A stretch of 59,414 nucleotides of DNA from an uncultured Candidatus Saccharibacteria bacterium (GTDB taxonomy: Bacteria; Patescibacteriota; Minisyncoccia; UBA6257; UBA11618): contig CAYICS010000005.1 of NCBI GenBank assembly GCA_964362125.1, positions 1 through 59,414 of the forward strand, read 5' to 3'. The notes beneath the pieces were generated by a model that saw only the letters and a program-made list of their open reading frames with translations, did no database searches and was not told the origin of the DNA. Of the stretch, positions 3,121-59,101 are shown in pieces. Position numbers and translations under genes: made by a program. Numbering within the stretch: the stretch's first letter is position 1; each line of letters opens with the position of its first letter.

Positions 3121-4153
3121 AAAAACTAACTCCAGCTTCTCTCAATACTCTCAGCAACGGCGCCACACTAATCGAAGTAGAGCTCAGACTAAAGTCTTCT
3201 TTAGAACTGACAATGCCCATCACTGAGCCGCGCCAGAAAACCGGTGAGCCGGAGCGGCCGCCAATGGTTTCCATCTGCGCCTGAATACCGATGGCGCCGC
3301 CAGCGAATTGCTTGTCACCAACAATTACAGCCGTGGTCTGACCAACACTGCCTTGCAAAAAGAAGCGGCCGCCGTACTGGGGATTGCCGCTGGGAAAACC
3401 AAAAGTAACGATTTCCTCGCCATCAGCCGGAACTTCATCAGTTACCATGGGACTAAATTGGAAACTGGCCGGAAGGGAGGTGTAGCCAAAGGCCGGGCCG
3501 TCGCTATTAACCCCGCTGATTTTCAAAAGGCCGATGTCAATAAAATTAAATTCGGCCTCGCTCCAGCCGGCGCCGCTGGCAACAAAAAATTTTTCAGCGC
3601 GGTAGGGCAGGATATCAACGATGGTAAAGGGATTGATGGCCCGGATCTGACTGATGGTGGGAGTGGTGGTGCCGGCCGGCGGCTGACCAACATCGCAACC
3701 TTGAAAATCGTAACCAGCGGCTCCCTGATTGCCGCCGGTGATCTGATAAGCATAATCCAAATCAAAGACATGGCGGGCAGTGAGAATGACACCTTGAGGG
3801 CTGATAATCACCCCAGAACCGAAGGCCTGCTTTTTTCTGCCTTGGTTATTAACAAAATCACAGCGCAGAACAACCGCAGTCTGAAGATTGATGGGGCGAG
3901 TAATGGGAGCAGTGGGGGTGATGGGGATGGCTGGGATAATAGCTGGGGCGATGGCTGGCGCCGGCGGTGTTGACACTGGCAGGGGCTGAGGCAGGGGCTG
4001 GCTGACTATTGTCGCCGGCTCGGCTGTTTCTGTTATCTGAGCTGGTTTGGTCAGAGCCGCCGGCTTGAGGACTATGGACGCTGGTTCAATATTAATCAGA
4101 GCGACGCCAGCGGCGGCCACTGCTATTAAAATGATCAAAATTATTCTAACCAA
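3119..4153 (-). CDS. Secreted trypsin-like serine protease
   Basis: GSGVIISPQGVILTARHV, DIGLLKI, GRSGSPV; Pro-rich linker. Confidence 0.85.
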   Translation of the reverse strand: MVRIILIILIAVAAAGVALINIEPASIVLKPAALTKPAQITETAEPATIVSQPLPQPLPVSTPPAPAIAPAIIPAIPITPTAPITRPINLQTAVVLRCDFVNNQGRKKQAFGSGVIISPQGVILTARHVFDLDYAYQITGGNQGAAGYDFQGCDVGQPPAGTTTPTISQIRAINPFTIVDILPYRAEKFFVASGAGWSEAEFNFIDIGLLKISGVNSDGPAFGYTSLPASFQFSPMVTDEVPADGEEIVTFGFPSGNPQYGGRFFLQGSVGQTTAVIVGDKQFAGGAIGIQAQMETIGGRSGSPVFWRGSVMGIVSSKEDFSLSSTSISVAPLLRVLREAGVSF

Positions 4154-4556
4154 GGCCGGCTAAAATAAAAATGATGGTGCAGAGGGCGGCGGAAATTAAA
4201 CACCAACTGCACCACTGTTTAAGTTCAAAGGCCTGAATGGCGGTCAGATAAAGAGAGAAAGAAAAGGCCAGCGCTGTGGCCGCCTTGATATAAAAAGTCA
4301 TCATGGCGGTGGCTAAAGCCGGCATCAGCAAAAATAAAAGATAGGTAATAACCACCAGACCGTAGTAAAGCATTCCCAAGACTGTCACCTGAATTCCCCC
4401 AAAAGCGGAATAGCCGCTGTGAATAACCGAGTCACATTCAAATTTCAGCGGACAGATCAGCGGCTTTCTTTCAGACAACAACTTGTGACGGTAAATATAA
4501 TTGGCAATTAAAAATCCTGCGACCGCCGCCGCAATTATTAACAAATAAACAGGCAT
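4146..4556 (-). CDS. Vitamin K epoxide reductase (VKOR) family protein
   Basis: CPLKFECDSVIHS and WCSWCL (CxxC), several TM segments. Confidence 0.9.
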   Translation of the reverse strand: MPVYLLIIAAAVAGFLIANYIYRHKLLSERKPLICPLKFECDSVIHSGYSAFGGIQVTVLGMLYYGLVVITYLLFLLMPALATAMMTFYIKAATALAFSFSLYLTAIQAFELKQWCSWCLISAALCTIIFILAGLG

Positions 4557-4579
4557 TGGTTAATTATATCATTAATAGA

Positions 4580-4836
4580 GCTTTTGGTCGCTGCCTAGCC
4601 GCCCCCACACTCTTCGCAGCAACCTGTGTAGTGGAAGGGATAAATTCCTGAGCTTCTCCGAACAAAATACCCAACAAATCAGCTGTTTGAGCTCTGAATC
4701 CCGAGCCGGGTCGAGGGAGAGGGCGAGTTCTGATTTTTGGGTTTATTTTGGAGGAGAAGCGAAGATTGAATTTATCTGTAACGGAATGGTTGCGAGAGGA
4801 GTGTGGGGACGGCTTAATGGCACGGGTACCAAAAGC
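4580..4836 (+). ncRNA. Unassigned ~257-nt rod-shaped structured element, copy 1
   Basis: End-to-end self-complementarity; homologous covarying copy at 55228-55523 (-). Confidence 0.65.
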
Positions 4837-4842
4837 GATACC

Positions 4843-5010
4843 TTAACAACGGCACTTGGCCTCGGCTTCGCCGCAACCCACGCACTTGGGCAGGCAATGT
4901 TCGCCGCCGCACTCATGATTCTCGTCGTGCTCATCAGCCTCGGCCCCGCACTGATCACACTTGTACCCCTCGCACTTCATGCCGCACTTTTTACAATTTT
5001 GTTCGTCCAT
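4843..5010 (-). CDS. 55-aa Cys/His-rich metallothionein-like protein (not in ORF track)
   Basis: MDEQNCKKCGMKCEGYKCDQCGAEADEHDENHECGGEHCLPKCVGCGEAEAKCRC; TGnTATAAT just upstream. Confidence 0.75.
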   Translation of the reverse strand: MDEQNCKKCGMKCEGYKCDQCGAEADEHDENHECGGEHCLPKCVGCGEAEAKCRC

Positions 5011-5089
5011 CTTCTTATTATAACATAGCTGTCAAGTATTGAGAAAGTCTGTGTCGGTTCCTCGAGTTTGACTAATAGAGAATCGGGGG

Positions 5090-5159
5090 CTGGAAACTGG
5101 AGACTGGAAACTGGAGACTGGAAACTGGAGACTGGAAACTGGAGACTGGAAACTGGTGA
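5090..5159. repeat. Tandem (CTGGAAA CTGGAGA)n array, 10 heptamers
   Basis: Read directly; last unit degenerate (CTGGTGA). Confidence 0.9.
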
Positions 5160-5304
5160 CCCAAAGCCCGCTGCGCCCAAAAGCGCGCGGGTTTTTTAAT
5201 TAATAACCCCACTCTTGAGGAATTCTCGCCTGAGCAACTCTCGCTCGCTTGAGGAATTCTCGAGGAAATCTCGCTTGAGGAGCTCTCGGGGAACTCTCAC
5301 TAAA

Positions 5305-5348
5305 TTAGTACTCACTTATGGCCCGATCGGGCCATAAGTGAGTACTAA
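5305..5348. repeat. 44-bp perfect palindrome, copy 1
   Basis: TTAGTACTCACTTATGGCCCGA|TCGGGCCATAAGTGAGTACTAA. Confidence 0.95.
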
Positions 5349-5389
5349 CTCAAAACATCTCAAAACACCTTAAAACTCCCTAAAAATCA

Positions 5390-5944
5390 TTAAACTTCTA
5401 TTGTCCCCTGTTGTTTAATAGTAAAAATATGAATGCACGATAAAATATTGATATTACTTAAATAATTAATAAACTTTTCCGGAAGGGGGCCTCGCCCCAG
5501 CCAAACACTTTTCTGGAGTCGTCTAAAACCTAACAGCGCTAACTGAATTCTAAGAGATTTTCTTTTCCAGCTTTCTTTTTCCGGGATGTCAAAAATAATT
5601 ATGGTGTCCGGCGGGCCTTTTGGAATTTCTAGCTGGGATTCTTTTTCTTTTTTTATATTCTCCAAAAAATTCTCCCCCTCGGAAGTAATCTGCCACACCC
5701 CGCGCCCCTCGTTTGTCACTAAGCCAGATTTTTTAAGTTTCAGCAAATAATTTTTTAGGGTTTGATATTTTATTCGTTCCAGTTCCCATTCTTCTTCTTT
5801 CTCTTGCAGATATTCATTAGCTAAAGACATTAGCAACTTAAGGCCGCCGCGACCCCCCAAACCAGCAGCTAAAAGAGATAAAATAACAGTGACTATTTGT
5901 GAACGGCCGCTTAATCTTCTAAACTCCCTTAAATTTCTTCCCAT
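5390..5944 (-). CDS. PaaX-like regulator (wHTH plus Cas2-like C-terminal domain)
   Basis: LKKSGLV...WQITSEG; IIIFDIPEKESWKRKSLR...LGFRRLQKSVW. Confidence 0.8.
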   Translation of the reverse strand: MGRNLREFRRLSGRSQIVTVILSLLAAGLGGRGGLKLLMSLANEYLQEKEEEWELERIKYQTLKNYLLKLKKSGLVTNEGRGVWQITSEGENFLENIKKEKESQLEIPKGPPDTIIIFDIPEKESWKRKSLRIQLALLGFRRLQKSVWLGRGPLPEKFINYLSNINILSCIHIFTIKQQGTIEV

Positions 5945-5993
5945 ACTCTTATATTCTTATATCTTTATTCTGCCTATATTCTTAATAAAATAA

Positions 5994-6035
5994 TAGTACT
6001 CACTTATGGCCCGATCGGGCCATAAGTGAGTACTA
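5994..6035. repeat. 42-bp perfect palindrome, copy 2
   Basis: Identical to the core of 5305-5348. Confidence 0.95.
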
Positions 6036-37032: not shown

Positions 37033-37100
37033 CCCCCACACCTAGTCAGTATTGCCCTGCGGGCATAAATAGCGACTAGCTTACTGACTAGGTGTGGGGG
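37033..37100. mobile_element. 68-bp MITE-like CCCCCACACCTA...TAGGTGTGGGGG element (also 58655-58722; 28-bp forms at ~37200 and 55432)
   Basis: Terminal inverted repeats and a shared internal TGCCC..GGCA hairpin. Confidence 0.75.
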
Positions 37101-37296
37101 TTGACAAGCATGCTATAATGTAAATACGAGATGAAAGGCAGCCGGCGTCGGGCTGTTTTTTGGTCTCCGCAACAGCCGAGTCAGACCGCCCCTATTTTAC
37201 CCCCACACCTATGCATAGGTGTGGGGGTACACTTTTTCCTATTTATAATTTATAATAAGGCCGGCACCCATTACCCATGAAAGAAGGAGTAAAACT

Positions 37297-53527: not shown

Positions 53528-53993
53528 TGCAGTAGACTTTTACAGCGGCTGAACCGCCGCCGACAACCGACCCGACCTCGACAATGGCGTTGGCAGTAGT
53601 CGAAGGACAAGCGGCAGAAACCCAATTACCGGAAATTTTAGCAAAGAGAATAGTTAAACTATTGCCGGCAGTCGGCGCCAAAAACCCCAAGGAAGATTTA
53701 AGGTAAAACTCACTGATGGCAGCAGTGATTTTAGCATCGGCAGTGGCGGTATTAAATAAAAAGTAACGATCGCGGCCACTGGACAAATTTTCAAACCTGA
53801 CTCCCCAATATAGTCCTGATTGCTGATTGATTGCCCGCTGCTGGGCATCTCTCAAGACAGCGGCCATTGTTCCGGCTGCCGACCCGACTTCTTGGCTATG
53901 ACTCAATCGAAATAAATACAAGCCGCCGGTAACAGCCACAATCACGATTACCCCTATCACAATCATCAGTTCGATAAGAGTCAATCCCTTCAT
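53511..53993 (-). CDS. Prepilin-type minor pilin (FimT/GspH-like)
   Basis: KGLTLIELMIVI. Confidence 0.85.
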   Translation of the reverse strand: MKGLTLIELMIVIGVIVIVAVTGGLYLFRLSHSQEVGSAAGTMAAVLRDAQQRAINQQSGLYWGVRFENLSSGRDRYFLFNTATADAKITAAISEFYLKSSLGFLAPTAGNSLTILFAKISGNWVSAACPSTTANAIVEVGSVVGGGSAAVKVYCNGRIE

Positions 53994-55201
53994 CAGAATT
54001 GTCCTACTAATTGATAAATCGGCATAATCACTGATAAGGCAATTAAACCAACCAAGCCGCCGATGACTATCAAGAGCGCCGGTTCAATAATTGACACCAT
54101 TCCTTTAATGGCCGCCTCGATTTCCGTGTCATAGAAAGTAGCCAAAGTGAATAATAATTCCTCAAGGTGACCGGCTTTTTCCGAAACAGCAATTAAATTA
54201 GTAATCACTTGGGGGAATTCTGTCTCCCGCTTAAAGGCGTCACCAATGGTTAAGCCGCGAGCCACGCCTTCACGGGCAATCCGCTGTAAGGCTAATTTCA
54301 AACGCTCATTACCGACAGCCGTGGCGGTCAACTCCAAAGAATCAATAATGGGCAGACCGGCTTTTAAAAGATAACCCAAAGTGGCGGCAAAGCGCTGAAT
54401 GGCAATCCGCAAAACAACATTTTTTATTACAGGAATTCTGGCTAAAATCCGCGACAGCCACAAGCGGCCGGTGGTGGTGTGAAAAAAGAAATACCAAAAA
54501 ATTAAAACTCCGCCAAATAACAATCCCGAGAGCCAAATAATATTATTAGAAATAAAAAGTCCGACGGTAAAAACAATTCTAGAAAAAGTCGGGGGCTCGA
54601 AACCTCCTTGCAGGAAAACATCGGCAATCCGCGGCAAAGCAAAAGTCACCAAAAAAGTCACCACCAAAAAAGAAGCGACGATAAGGACGATTGGATAAAG
54701 CAAAGCGGAGCGAATGCGGCGCCGCAAATCTTCTTCCTTCTGCAGCATCAGGCTTAAATTATCAAAAGTGGCTTCGAGATTTCCGGAGATCTCGCCAGCT
54801 TTCACCAAATTAACAAAAATCGGCGAGAAATACTGGGGATACTTGGCAAAGGTGACATAAAAGGGCTGGCCTTTTTCTAAAGTGGTGCGGATTTCTGTCA
54901 GTAAAGACTTAACTGCCGGTTTTTCAAAATCAGCAATTAAAATATCCAAAGCCCGGAAGAGATCGGTGCCGGCGCGAAGCATCAAGGCCAGATATCTTGT
55001 CAGGAAAATGTTGTCGGTAGTGGTAATGCCGCCGCCGAAAATATAAATCTTGCCGCCGATAGTCCAAGTTGATTGCTGGACAGAAATCGGCTTCAGTTCG
55101 TTTCTGGAAAGAAAATCCAGCACCGCCTGCTCTGATTGGGCGTCGACCGCTCCCTTAATAATCCGCCCGTCTGGTTGAATAGCGGTATAGGCAAACTTCA
55201 T
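53993..55201 (-). CDS. pilC: Type IV pilus platform protein PilC/GspF
   Basis: AGEISGNL, ALLYP, EKAGHL, IEPAL; start at MKFAY. Confidence 0.92.
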   Translation of the reverse strand: MKFAYTAIQPDGRIIKGAVDAQSEQAVLDFLSRNELKPISVQQSTWTIGGKIYIFGGGITTTDNIFLTRYLALMLRAGTDLFRALDILIADFEKPAVKSLLTEIRTTLEKGQPFYVTFAKYPQYFSPIFVNLVKAGEISGNLEATFDNLSLMLQKEEDLRRRIRSALLYPIVLIVASFLVVTFLVTFALPRIADVFLQGGFEPPTFSRIVFTVGLFISNNIIWLSGLLFGGVLIFWYFFFHTTTGRLWLSRILARIPVIKNVVLRIAIQRFAATLGYLLKAGLPIIDSLELTATAVGNERLKLALQRIAREGVARGLTIGDAFKRETEFPQVITNLIAVSEKAGHLEELLFTLATFYDTEIEAAIKGMVSIIEPALLIVIGGLVGLIALSVIMPIYQLVGQF

Positions 55202-55227
55202 ATTATTAATAATAGCATAAAAGGTGA

Positions 55228-55523
55228 GGCTTTCGGTGCCCGCTAGCATCGGCCAGCCAGCTCCTCTCGCAACCATTCCGTTACAGATAAATTCCTCCTC
55301 ACCCTAAGTCAGAAATTATCAGAAAAACAGAACTCGCCGTTAACATTAAGGAAGATAAGGGTTCCCCAGCAGAGCTGGGGCTCAAACAACTGTTTTTCTT
55401 AGATTTCTTTGACTTAGAGTTCGGGAATTTACCCCCACACCTATGCATAGGTGTGGGGGTTTATCTACTTCCACTACACAGGTTGCTGTGAAGAGCTGGC
55501 TGGCCTGCCAGCGACCAAAAGCC
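55228..55523 (-). ncRNA. Unassigned rod-shaped structured element, copy 2 (with 28-bp palindrome insertion)
   Basis: Homologous to 4580-4836, with compensatory stem changes. Confidence 0.65.
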
Positions 55524-55596
55524 CTATTAAAAACCCAAACAAAAAAGGAGGGTCTGGCACAGACTAGAACCAAAGAACCGCCGGGTGGCGGTACCT

Positions 55597-57306
55597 TTAC
55601 TCTCTTATCACCCTCAACACCTCCTCAATCGTCGTCATCCCCCGCTCCACCTTGCGCAGACCGTCCTCAAACATTGTCATCATCCCCTGTTGCCTGGCCG
55701 CCTCACCTAAAGCATCCAAAGTAAATTCCGGACTGACAATCAGCTGGCGAATCTCTTCGGTCACATTGAGCATTTCAAAAATACCCAACCGTCCCTTATA
55801 ACCGGTCTGGCCGCAACTGGAACAACCCAAGCCCTTATAAAGCATCTTGGGTAATTTTATATTGGAATCAATCTTTAATTCCGTCAGTTGTTTCTTGATT
55901 GATTCTAAAATATGCGGTTCGGGGGTGTAAGAAGTGATGCAGGAAAGACAAATGCGGCGCACTAATCTTTGGGCGGCCACCAGATTCAAAACAGCCGCTG
56001 CCAGAAACGGCGGCACTTTTAAATCTAAAAGACGCGGGATGGCTGTCGGGGCATCATTGGTGTGCAAACTGGATAAAACCAAATGTCCAGTGAGGGCCGC
56101 CTGGACGGCGATATCAGCCGTTTCTTGATCACGAACCTCACCGACCATAACGATATTGGGATCCTGCCGGACAATTTCCCGGAGACCGCTGGCAAAAGTA
56201 ATCCCCTGCGCCGAATTAACCTGCGTTTGATTGATATACTTCATATCGTATTCAATGGGATCTTCGACAGTCACAATATTAACCTCGGGCCGATTCAAGA
56301 TATTAATCACCGAATAAAGCGTCGTCGTTTTACCAGACCCGGTTGGCCCGGTCACCAAAATCATGCCGTAGGTCTTCTTCATATTTTCACGGAGAATCAC
56401 CACATGATCTTCCAGCATTCCCAGTTCCTCAAGCGACTGCGGCCGCTGCGTGGCCGCCAGCAACCGCATCTCCACCTTCTCTCCATAGAAAGTGGGCATA
56501 ATAGCCACCCGGATATCCATTAAGTCATGGCCAATCTTGTAGCGGAAACGGCCGTCTTGAGGTTTGTTGTGTTCGTCTAATTTTAAAGAGGCCAAAAGTT
56601 TAATGCGGGCGGCGATGGCCGGATGAACTTCTTTGGGGATGCGAATAATTTCGTGAAGAATGCCGTCGATCCGATAACGAATCAACAGCTCTTTTTCTAA
56701 AATCTCCATATGAATATCAGAGGCCCGGGAAGAAATGGCATAAGCAATCAGGTTGTCGACAATAGCAATGATCGGCACTTCTTTGGCGGCTTCCTCAGTG
56801 CCAGCGGCTTGGGAGCGCATCGAGGCGCCAATATTTTCTTCAATAATTTTCTTGAAACTCTCAGCGGAACGGCGGCTGTAAAAAGAGAAGCCGTAATTTA
56901 AATCTTCCGGCGAGGCCAGGTAAGGAACAATTTTGGTTTTGAGGAGCTTTGATAAATAATCAATGGCTTCCAAATCCACAGGATTTTCCATAGCCACGGC
57001 ATAAGAACCATCTTGATTTTTGCCGAAAACAATCAGGCGGCGCTGGCGGGAGAGATCCTCCGGCACTAACTGGATAATAGCTTCATCGAGCGCCCGGTTC
57101 ATTAGACCGGCCCGCTCCGCTTCATAAAAAGCCGCTGCCAGATTGAGGTAGTAATCTAAAGTCAGCAGGTTGCGGGCGATTAAAATATCCGCCGGGTTCT
57201 GCCCCATGCGCTTCGCTTCCTGCAAGGCCATTTCAAAATCTTCTTCTTTAACAATACCGTCTTTAATTAACAGCTCCCGGAGCTTGTCTTCAGGAATGGA
57301 GAGCAT
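55597..57306 (-). CDS. pilB: Type IV pilus assembly ATPase PilB/GspE
   Basis: ASDIH, PQDGR, GPTGSGKTT, EDPIEY, RQDPNIVMVGEVRD, GYKGRLG. Confidence 0.95.
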   Translation of the reverse strand: MLSIPEDKLRELLIKDGIVKEEDFEMALQEAKRMGQNPADILIARNLLTLDYYLNLAAAFYEAERAGLMNRALDEAIIQLVPEDLSRQRRLIVFGKNQDGSYAVAMENPVDLEAIDYLSKLLKTKIVPYLASPEDLNYGFSFYSRRSAESFKKIIEENIGASMRSQAAGTEEAAKEVPIIAIVDNLIAYAISSRASDIHMEILEKELLIRYRIDGILHEIIRIPKEVHPAIAARIKLLASLKLDEHNKPQDGRFRYKIGHDLMDIRVAIMPTFYGEKVEMRLLAATQRPQSLEELGMLEDHVVILRENMKKTYGMILVTGPTGSGKTTTLYSVINILNRPEVNIVTVEDPIEYDMKYINQTQVNSAQGITFASGLREIVRQDPNIVMVGEVRDQETADIAVQAALTGHLVLSSLHTNDAPTAIPRLLDLKVPPFLAAAVLNLVAAQRLVRRICLSCITSYTPEPHILESIKKQLTELKIDSNIKLPKMLYKGLGCSSCGQTGYKGRLGIFEMLNVTEEIRQLIVSPEFTLDALGEAARQQGMMTMFEDGLRKVERGMTTIEEVLRVIRE

Positions 57307-58563: not shown

Positions 58564-58729
58564 AGTTTTTGATTTTACGACCTTTTAACTGAACTGACCG
58601 ACTTTCTTAATTATAACAGGCCTATTTCCGGCGACAACAACCAGCTGTGGAAAACCCCCACACCTAGTCAGCATTGCCCTGCAGGCAAAATTAACGAATA
58701 GTGTGCTAACTAGGTGTGGGGGAAAACCC

Positions 58730-59101
58730 CTATCCCCCCAGAAATCCCCTAACTTTCGCCACTAGGTCGTCAATTGGTGTCTGAGCTTTAACAAAATACT
58801 CCACTGCCCCCAATTCTTTGCCCCTAGCTACATCCTGCTCCTGGCCCAAGTTAGAAATAATCATAATGGGCGTCTGGCCGTACTGGGGGCTGGCAACAAT
58901 CTCTTCCATGGCCTCAAAACCCGACTTTCCGGGTAAGATAATATCCATCAAAATCAGGTCAAATTTATTCTCTTTGAGCAACTGCAAAACCTGGTCACCA
59001 TTAGTCGCTAAAACCACTTCCAAGCCCTCCTTAGTGAGGCGGGTTTGCAAAAGTGAAGAAAGGAATTGATCGTCTTCAACTAACAAAATTTTCTTTGGCA
59101 T
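58730..59101 (-). CDS. Single-domain response regulator
   Basis: ILLVEDD, DLILMDIILP, YFVK. Confidence 0.92.
   Translation of the reverse strand: MPKKILLVEDDQFLSSLLQTRLTKEGLEVVLATNGDQVLQLLKENKFDLILMDIILPGKSGFEAMEEIVASPQYGQTPIMIISNLGQEQDVARGKELGAVEYFVKAQTPIDDLVAKVRGFLGG

Follow-up and report, generated by a model that had tools for sequence, protein, structure and literature searches.

What is the long hairpin that stands twice in this stretch of DNA, in copies whose stems differ in sequence and still pair, and why should an ultra-small bacterium carry it? A genome of only some 0.6 Mb is generally supposed to have shed whatever DNA it could do without, and the genome considered here has 617,965 bases in 24 contigs, is rated 96.9% complete, and sits, according to the sequencing-run listing, among groundwater Patescibacteria. 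The window, by which we mean the whole 59,414-nt stretch that was analysed, is one of its contigs (C5). An earlier note, made from the letters of the window, had described two covarying copies of a rod-shaped element, had recognised no family for it, and had offered three readings: a 6S-like RNA, a single-strand promoter or origin, or a structured mobile element. Our analysis finds that the genome holds 15 copies rather than two, and that the last of the three readings fits best, given the copy number, the decay, the chimeras, the patchy spread and the insertion between pilB and pilC.

The rod and its copies in one genome

The two copies in the window, their parts and their neighbours are as follows. 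R1 and R2 are covariance models described in the next section; the part of copy 1 that they model is its inner core.

4146..4556, minus strand: VKOR-family gene (Pfam VKOR, E 6e-21), its start codon 15 nt from copy 1 base 4572, on the opposite strand
4572..4846, plus strand: copy 1, the entire rod including short unpaired 5' and 3' tails, from the MFE fold and alignment to copy 2
4580..4615, plus strand: outer 5' arms of copy 1, P1 (4580-4595) and P2 (4597-4615), pairing from the MFE fold
4619-4624 and 4625-4639, plus strand: 5' arm of P3 (GCAACC), then the 5' strand of the purine-rich internal loop
4640..4775, plus strand: inner core of copy 1 (P4, tandem-GA site, P5, P6, apical module), 118 bits with R1 and 107.4 bits with R2
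4776-4787, 4788-4793, 4794-4814 and 4819-4836, plus strand: 3' strand of the internal loop, then the 3' arms of P3, P2 and P1
4843-5010, minus strand: small Cys-rich ORF neighbouring copy 1, from the ORF table
53993..55201, minus strand: pilC/GspF-type platform gene, downstream of copy 2 (Pfam T2SSF, E 1e-51)
55218..55531, minus strand: copy 2, the entire rod from the MFE fold, inside the 395-nt pilB/pilC spacer
55287..55432, minus strand: inner core of copy 2 (P4-P6 and a type-A apical module), 167.5 bits with R1 and 119.3 bits with R2
55315..55343, minus strand: promoter-like match (TTAACG, 17 nt, GAUAAU), a consensus match at 9 of 12 positions
55432..55464, minus strand: small palindrome CCCCCACACCUAUGCAUAGGUGUGGGGG with A/U flanks, nested within copy 2 (P4 border) and showing as an insert when other copies are compared
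55552..55592, minus strand: two hairpins resembling terminators, with T runs, directly behind the stop codon of pilB and ahead of copy 2, from a consensus scan
55597..57306, minus strand: pilB/GspE-type ATPase gene, upstream of copy 2 (Pfam T2SSE, E 7.5e-122)

When the two copies are aligned, every sequence block that had been listed as shared is found, and identical columns make up 77% of the alignment. The single long rod described for each copy is borne out: the MFE is -126.1 kcal/mol for copy 1 (z = -8.87, equalled by none of 200 shuffles) and -150.8 kcal/mol for copy 2 (z = -11.2, equalled by none of 100). The complement folds 17 kcal/mol worse for copy 1 and copy 2 alike, in line with the remark that G-U pairs favour one strand. 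Where the stems of the copies diverge in sequence, pairing is nevertheless kept: copy 1 has AGCCGCCCCCACAC opposite GUGUGGGGACGGCU, copy 2 has GGCCAGCCAGC opposite GCUGGCUGGCC, and both versions of a long A/U-rich helix pair as well. Relative to the neighbouring genes, copy 1 is antisense (VKOR gene and small Cys-rich ORF) and copy 2 is sense (pilB and pilC), again as the note had it.

The element is 230-330 nt long and folds on one strand as a single long hairpin. Its inner core is conserved and its internal loops are rich in purines (tandem G.A sites; UGUUUGA opposite GAGUUC); the outer stems around them vary in sequence between copies, yet pair well in nearly all. In copy 1, P1 is common to some other copies in the genome, P2 combines a variable outer part with a conserved CUCUUC, and the apical module contains UGUUUGAGC ... 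GGCGAGUUCUG, both invariant among the copies of this genome. The short P3 helix occurs as GCAACC/GGUUGC, GCAAUA/UAUUGC, GCAACA/UGUUGC and ACAACC/GGUUGU, each the pairing covariant of the others. At the end of the outer stem stands a paired U run, unlike the free run of an intrinsic terminator. In copy 2 the promoter-like match lies in the 3' half and reads outward to pilC, its sequence being conserved in type-A copies. The internal loop of copies 1 and 2 sets 15 nt against 12 nt, about 45 nt in from the 5' end, and the earlier description of an invariant bubble applies to these two copies, where it is identical; it does not extend to the family, in which the region has at least two sequence subtypes and is, in many relatives, mostly a helix with G.A mismatches. 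A 7-bp helix takes up most of it in relatives such as L143, L158 and L161.

How many copies are there? A profile search (nhmmer) with the two known copies returns 15 matches at E < 1e-20, on ten contigs and several at contig ends, together with weaker fragments. All 15 have the rod fold and all are intergenic, in either orientation (about 6 sense and 8 antisense to the flanking genes), several within about 70 nt of the adjacent gene. They are modular: the apical module comes in two versions, the long A/U helix in two, the internal-loop region in at least two and the P5 helix in at least eight, and the apex is the most variable module of the rod, the outer stems being highly variable too. Several copies are incomplete or mixed. 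A chimeric copy on C10 has poorly matched arms; the copies at C4:22767-23020 and C2:24013-24280 have no 5' outer arm; of a 'mini-rod' at C1:15400-15650 the outer half is retained and a 137-nt inner part is missing, so that it is core-less; and fragments with the 5' arm only lie at C3:65860-66000 and C15:11100-11266.

One pair of copies is particularly informative about how this modularity may arise. Copy 1 (C5:4560-4859) and the copy at C4:4616-4862 have an identical 136-nt inner core (4640..4775 in the window, 100% identical to C4:4689-4824), and a single base differs between CUCUUC and GAGAGGAG. The adjoining outer 13-bp P2 stems are unrelated in sequence, and each pairs. Slow compensatory drift cannot yield the same core with unrelated stems, and therefore the core must have passed by copying, as one contiguous piece, into another outer hairpin. 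We suggest that a core of roughly 190 nt would be swapped between outer hairpins in such events, either by gene conversion or by entry into the centre of a palindrome. This picture of core exchange also suits the mini-rod and the nested small palindromes, although a long palindrome that had lost its centre would account for the mini-rod too.

The nested small palindromes form a separate dispersed family of 28 nt (CCCCCACACC...GGUGUGGGGG), which is found in some rods, including copy 2 and not copy 1, and also stands alone elsewhere in the genome.

Covariation, strand polarity and relatives

With blastn against 60 related genomes the rod itself was not matched, and the only part of the query that was, in 7 of the 60, was the nested small palindrome, so that a covariance model was needed to find relatives. 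A motif scan over one genome per species gave 87 stretches, all of them chance matches (best nhmmer E 0.01, 11 bits). When metagenome contigs were scanned more strictly, 10 loci came up. Seven of these are the same organism (99.75-100% identity to contigs of the present genome, G000), L129 is an extra copy belonging to the same assembly and about 90% similar to those that end contigs C20 and C12, and L130 and L136 come from another organism, with the same architecture and new compensatory variants (for example P3 GCAACA/UGUUGC).

A MAFFT alignment of the inner part of 16 copies (A2), in which RNAalifold finds 26 pairs, 12 of them with double changes, is the basis of covariance model R1. Among 150 other genomes of the order, 16 have full-length matches to R1; among 146 from the class's other orders, none does. 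Realigning 45 matches to the model gave alignment A3, the basis of R2, which matches 25 of the 150 (1-9 matches per genome) and 4 of the 146; both models span the inner 131-145 positions. The covariance-model search that the earlier note had proposed as a check thus yields full-length relatives, both in the order and beyond it. By family, R2 matches 4 of 7 genomes in f1, 4 of 7 in f22 and 4 of 6 in f26, and 0 of 7 in each of ten other families. Taken with their flanks, the matches in relatives give the same long rod with the same conserved loops, and the architecture is full-length in the other orders too.

The argument from covariation had rested on two copies, and it is now confirmed on the 44 distinct sequences of A3, which come from 17 genomes and from two contigs of another metagenome organism, and which give 1089 cells over 26 pairs. 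Standard pairs fill 92.1% of these cells, as opposed to 34-55% when the partners are slid by 1-3 columns; both-sided changes occur in 22 of the 26 pairs; the covariation score is 0.527, as opposed to 0.05-0.09 in the slid controls; and the observed measures are reached in none of 500 shuffles. A3 is fitted to the model and so leans to the structure, and the independent MAFFT alignment A2 had the signal already. There are 37 G.U versus 18 A.C pairs (21 of the G.U being confined to two positions) and 32 purine-purine mismatches (A.G and G.A) versus 6 of C.U and U.C. Moreover, 37 of 39 copies are more stable when the model strand is folded than when its complement is, by a mean of 12.4 kcal/mol. 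Covariation, mismatch bias and strand-specific folding together point to a constraint on a single strand of defined polarity. Judged from these comparisons, the structure is under selection on one strand, a statement that would hold for RNA and for single-stranded DNA alike.

The rods of relatives occupy divergent, convergent and tandem spacers (7 of about 20 lie in divergent promoter regions, as read from the ORF table), and the genes beside them show no overall conservation. A tree of 42 rows, from which three rows shorter than 100 nt were dropped, groups the copies mostly by lineage, nests the L130 and L136 copies inside the radiation of this genome, and makes sisters of the two rods that genomes G002 and G009 carry between rplL and mraZ. 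Phage and plasmid collections gave no match to the rod, and 0 of 50 viral contigs with the motif pattern match R2.

Insertion sites and the search for an enzyme

The pilB-pilC junction gives a clear filled-versus-empty site for copy 2. At 10 of 14 orthologous pilB loci of the family the two genes are 0-18 nt apart or overlap; in the present genome the gap is 395 nt and contains the two terminator-like hairpins and copy 2. Genus g3, where pilC is not the next gene after pilB, includes two genomes (G002 and G013) with a rod just past pilB in the opposite orientation, and a third (G009) with a shorter hairpin after pilB that the model misses. At homologous VKOR loci a rod is present in 0 of 9. 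The order rplL-rod-mraZ is found in G146 (f26) and G009 (f1), that is, in two families, and flanking matches together with a shared downstream mraZ-type box indicate the same locus in G002 (f1). A rod on contig C1 of G009 lies, in the opposite orientation, between orthologues of the two genes that flank the mini-rod. Opposite orientations at shared loci could reflect repeated entry into a few permissive spacers or flipping in place, which would go by recombination between the paired outer arms.

Because there are filled and empty sites, because loci are shared between genomes and because the tree follows lineage, we conclude that rods enter spacers by insertion, multiply within a lineage and persist through speciation. 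The truncated, chimeric and core-less forms show that they also decay. Inspection of the ends of the copies gave no consistent target duplication, the empty pilB-pilC sites being too diverged to place the borders. Four metagenome runs searched over 3500-6000 gave no excision or empty-site variant of copy 1: none of their contigs, which are short and end within the repeat, bridges the copy. In run X4, a contig leaves the window sequence after position 4595. The runs listed for positions 4100-5400 number 8, from 2 studies, none of them recorded as RNA.

In several places two inverted copies bracket a gene cassette or DNA segment (C2:24013 with 28927; G081:C18; G068:C2), and the 1.4 kb between the two inverted rods of G081 has no Rfam match. 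The 9-mer TTATCCACA lies downstream of several rods, but it occurs 32 times genome-wide and is therefore not specific to them. The idea that it is a DnaA box was dropped, as the 9-mer looks like part of a common promoter.

Which enzyme could move such an element? No reverse transcriptase (RVT_1) or TnpB-type domain was found, in a search that covered these two, the tyrosine recombinases and the Y1 proteins, and a link to retroelements or TnpB was set aside since neither domain was there. The only tyrosine recombinase gene is away from the rods, which form no arrays and have no adjacent recombinase. The genome does have three RayT-like Y1 (HUH) genes. However, each is flanked by its own family of 27-35-bp palindromes, unrelated to the rods (G068 has the same arrangement), and no rod flanks a RayT-like gene in the own genome, in G046 or in G068; in G046 a rod lies 1.8 kb from a Y1 gene, with two ORFs between. 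Y1 matches occur in 11 of 25 rod-positive versus 31 of 125 rod-negative genomes, assuming the same 150-genome sample, so that co-occurrence is weak, and 14 of the 25 rod-bearing genomes have no Y1 match. With other palindromes in the Y1 flanks and so weak a co-occurrence, we rejected the RayT link.

What the rod may be

The earlier statement that the element belongs to no known family holds up: Rfam 15, run over the whole window, gave nothing at gathering score, the matches around the copies being at chance level. The 6S model (RF00013) matched neither copy's surroundings at E <= 10 nor any part of the genome at E <= 1. Models of SRP RNA (RF00169, RF01854) found nothing in the window or the genome, a blank that says little since Rfam misses RNase P and 6S RNA here too. 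We rejected the idea that the rod is SRP RNA, which has a conserved apical tetraloop domain; the apex of the rod is its most variable module. A motif look-up did give an SRP candidate, on C1, unrelated to the rods. Among the papers that a full-text search of the literature listed, none joins the candidate phyla radiation with terms for MITEs, palindromic elements or structured RNAs. The rod family is uncatalogued.

We give roughly even chances to the view that the rod is a selfish, insertion-prone structured repeat that is recognised as a folded single strand. Selection on the folded strand of one polarity makes a hairpin the most likely form in which the element is recognised, copied or moved. 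This hairpin, either single-stranded DNA or the transcript of it, would be bound by a protein that recognises the conserved loops. Transcription of an operon through a copy would give a dsRNA-like hairpin of more than 100 bp, which could block or process the transcript, and the copy may itself supply an outward promoter, as the pilB-pilC site would require. A narrower version, that the rod moves as single-stranded DNA by way of an HUH-type or similar enzyme, we consider unlikely. Against a mobile element stands the fact that our searches found no mobilising enzyme; moreover, conserved loops, covarying helices and a shared rplL-mraZ position are what one would expect of a functional RNA gene.

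This brings up the reading of the rods as a structured non-coding RNA family, in which the rod of the model strand is the functional product and the many copies are gene duplicates, some of them decaying. The RNA might then be a protein-binding scaffold or sponge, or a double-stranded RNA processed by RNase III, with the purine-rich loops as binding sites. Strong helix covariation with conserved loops across 17 genomes and two contigs speaks for such a family, as do the strand-specific fold in 37 of 39 copies with its excess of G.A over C.U mismatches, an architecture conserved at full length in the class's other orders, rods in divergent spacers beyond read-through from their neighbours, and a rplL-mraZ position common to two families, with sister rods at one locus in two species. 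On the other hand, R2 matches no more than 25 of the order's 150 genomes and, in each of ten families, none of the 7 sampled, copy number runs from 1 to 15, there are truncated, chimeric and core-less copies, and related genomes have the rod in opposite orientation at the same locus; a conserved upstream promoter was looked for and none was seen, and no partner protein is known. On balance we regard an RNA family as possible and lean against it. The more special proposal of a 6S-like RNA, which would mimic an open promoter and sequester RNA polymerase, is not supported by the comparison and seems to us hardly credible. It drew on the rod shape and on the 15/12-nt internal loop some 45 nt from the 5' end of copies 1 and 2, and one may add that the genome has no Rfam 6S match, so that its 6S gene has not been located. 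But Rfam misses SRP and RNase P RNA here as well, so that a missing 6S match says little; the Rfam 6S model matches 0 of the 15 copies, many of which are decayed; the loop is no conserved open bubble and is mostly helix in many relatives; and a length of 230-330 nt compares with about 185 nt for 6S RNA.

Could the rods instead serve the transcripts in which they lie, as terminators, insulators, mRNA-stabilising hairpins or processing sites recruited by the host, their spread being secondary? All copies of this genome are intergenic, several within about 70 nt of a flanking gene, and copy 2 sits within the pilB-pilC unit, behind two terminator-like hairpins and with its outward promoter-like match. 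Yet such a cis-acting role is very improbable in view of the mixed orientation (about 6 sense and 8 antisense), the 7 of about 20 relatives' rods in divergent promoter regions, the terminal U run that is paired and not free, and a 110-bp helix far beyond what termination needs. We think it very improbable that the rod is a folded single-strand DNA site, whether an attC-like hairpin recombination site or a single-strand origin or promoter of the kind found in rolling-circle plasmids. The strand-specific fold, the loops conserved at fixed places in an otherwise freely varying stem, and the inverted copy pairs that bracket cassettes or segments would all suit a site of this type; it is weakened by the lack of arrays and of an adjacent recombinase, the sole tyrosine recombinase gene being elsewhere, by copies scattered on the chromosome and not on a replicon of their own, and by the failure of phage, plasmid and motif-bearing viral sequences to match. 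For a single-strand promoter or origin in particular, which the earlier note had listed, no finding here speaks in favour.

If the rods are indeed mobile repeats, how do they compare with known ones? In our reading they add one more variety to the dispersed hairpin repeats of other bacteria, such as ERIC, Correia, bcr1 and REPIN. ERIC/IRU in enterobacteria and Correia (CREE/nemis) in Neisseria are dispersed intergenic imperfect palindromes in either orientation, often co-transcribed as long hairpins, with internal insertions that make size variants and with possible effects as promoters, terminators or RNase III sites. The rods are likewise dispersed, intergenic and in either orientation, but they are two to three times longer, conserve the centre and vary at the termini, have no terminal inverted repeat consensus and no target duplication that we could see, and covary across an order and beyond. 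The bcr1 repeat of the Bacillus cereus group, about 155 bp long, resembles them in being multi-copy and mobile-looking, with an RNA fold that undergoes compensatory changes, and so in standing between MITE and RNA gene; it differs in having a specific target duplication and in being confined to a single species group, whereas the rods have no recognisable target and a broader range. REPIN-RAYT systems are hairpin repeats with paired arm changes and vertical persistence, thought to move as single-stranded DNA. The genome of the rods also encodes its three RayT-like Y1 proteins, but the genes have palindromes of their own as flanks rather than rods. With classical MITEs the rods share a multi-copy, intergenic habit and presence/absence differences between related genomes; conserved terminal inverted repeats that match an insertion sequence are not found, the pattern being reversed in that the termini of the rods are the least conserved part. 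From 6S RNA, which they resemble in rod shape and internal loop, they are set apart by the lack of a model match, of a conserved open bubble and of a similar length, and by number, for instead of one or two genes per genome there are 15 copies here and up to 9 matches in relatives. TIGR loci consist of tandem arrays next to a gene for Tas (Nop-domain), in which box C/D sequences flank dual spacers that are unpaired (PMC12045711); on that description we rejected the comparison, as the rod copies are scattered and their variable segments pair with each other. The rods are unusual in their size, in a conserved centre with free ends, in covariation across an order and beyond, and in nesting.

A more far-reaching formulation, which we offer as rather doubtful, is that the rod is a new self-propagating structured nucleic acid of ultra-small bacteria, with a viroid-shaped core of about 190 nt and purine loops read by a protein, copying itself into the centres of existing hairpins, so that palindrome nests in palindrome, and kept order-wide and beyond for a very long time by a conserved protein, of the host or of the element, whose target is the folded strand. 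Put in terms of RNA, the rod would be the first structured RNA specific to the candidate phyla radiation that is both multi-copy and order-wide.

More generally, 15 copies of 230-330 nt amount to roughly 4 kb of a 618-kb genome, despite the streamlining that one expects of it. The order-wide maintenance of the fold by compensatory change would imply either a mobile element with a new, hairpin-based way of moving or a new system of RNA and protein. The pilus machine is thought to be needed by such bacteria for host contact and DNA uptake. Since copy 2 lies inside the pilus operon, between pilB and pilC, it probably affects the expression of this surface machine. On the practical side, model R2 can be used to annotate the family, which would explain breaks between contigs and prevent spurious ORF calls, an example of which is the 113-aa ORF at 4687-5028.

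Sequences adjoining copy 1

At copy 1 of the rod, the element of 230-330 nt that folds as one long hairpin, we find two open frames. The VKOR gene at window 4146-4556 (minus strand) encodes 136 aa, while the homologous frame is about 330 aa long, or is cut by the end of the locus, in eight of nine related genomes (L223-L231). By this comparison, G000, the genome to which the window belongs, appears either to lack the usual C-terminal domain or to have it detached from this gene. The other frame adjoins copy 1 directly and is without a Pfam match:

4843-5010, minus strand: ORF of 55 aa, whose 12 cysteines are arranged as CxxC-like pairs (MDEQNCKKCGMKCEGYKCDQCG...)

In X4, one of the metagenome runs compared with this region, one contig tracks the window from the VKOR gene to position 4595, 24 nt into copy 1, and then continues as 102 nt of unrelated, AT-rich sequence. 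This contig may come from a strain that is arranged differently at the copy 1 site.

Palindromic families and RayT-like genes

Besides the rods, G000 holds another family of insertion elements, which are small and palindromic and follow the pattern CCCCCACACCTA ... TAGGTGTGGGGG. Four of their sites lie in the window:

37033-37115: small palindromic element
37195-37232: small palindromic element
55432-55464: small palindromic element
58655-58737: small palindromic element

About 15 further sites lie in G000. The elements take two forms, a short one with a TGCA centre and a long one with a centre of about 45 nt, and are placed between genes as well as nested within rods. The small palindromic part alone is matched by blastn in 7 of 60 related genomes, with 15 matches in G030.

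The 618-kb genome also encodes three RayT-like Y1/HUH transposase genes (loci L125-L127):

C3:41101-41868, minus strand: RayT-like Y1/HUH gene
C8:3339-4082, plus strand: RayT-like Y1/HUH gene
C9:5775-6566, minus strand: RayT-like Y1/HUH gene

Each has its own perfect palindrome of 27-35 bp, present on both flanks and once within the gene, and all three palindrome families are also dispersed elsewhere in G000; the genome carries the C3 type, ATGTTTGGGGG...CCCCCAAACAT, at 13 sites or more.

A 9-mer downstream of rods

The 9-mer TTATCCACA, the DnaA-box consensus, occurs at 32 sites in G000 against about 5 expected, including:

148 and 43533: 9-mer TTATCCACA

It stands immediately downstream of rods in four loci (L151, L152, L157 and L163) and at C4:5158. 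A frequent setting is a TTGNCA-like motif, about 10 nt and then TGTGGATAAC, an arrangement that looks like a lineage-specific promoter element.

Rod-associated sites in related genomes

At the pilB-pilC junction of G008 (L194), the filler is not a rod but about 170 nt of AT-rich, mirrored short-period repeat, with units that include CTAAAAA and TTTAGGA. Elements seem to land in this spacer repeatedly. In G081, two inverted rods 1.4 kb apart (L160) enclose GC-rich DNA:

L160 positions 190-1100 (G081:C18, about 65420-66330): GC-rich DNA between inverted rods

This segment has 52% GC, compared with 44% nearby, and long internal complementarity; it is apparently non-coding, matches no Rfam family and could be a further structured RNA or element. 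In genus g38 (G094 and G132), another short repeat, ...GCGGGATATTTTCTCAGACAAGTTTGGTTTGCT..., adjoins rods (5' and 3' flanks of L139, L145 and L156), and the L156 rod is flanked on both sides by GACAAGTTTGGTTTGCTCCTG, a shorter part of this repeat.
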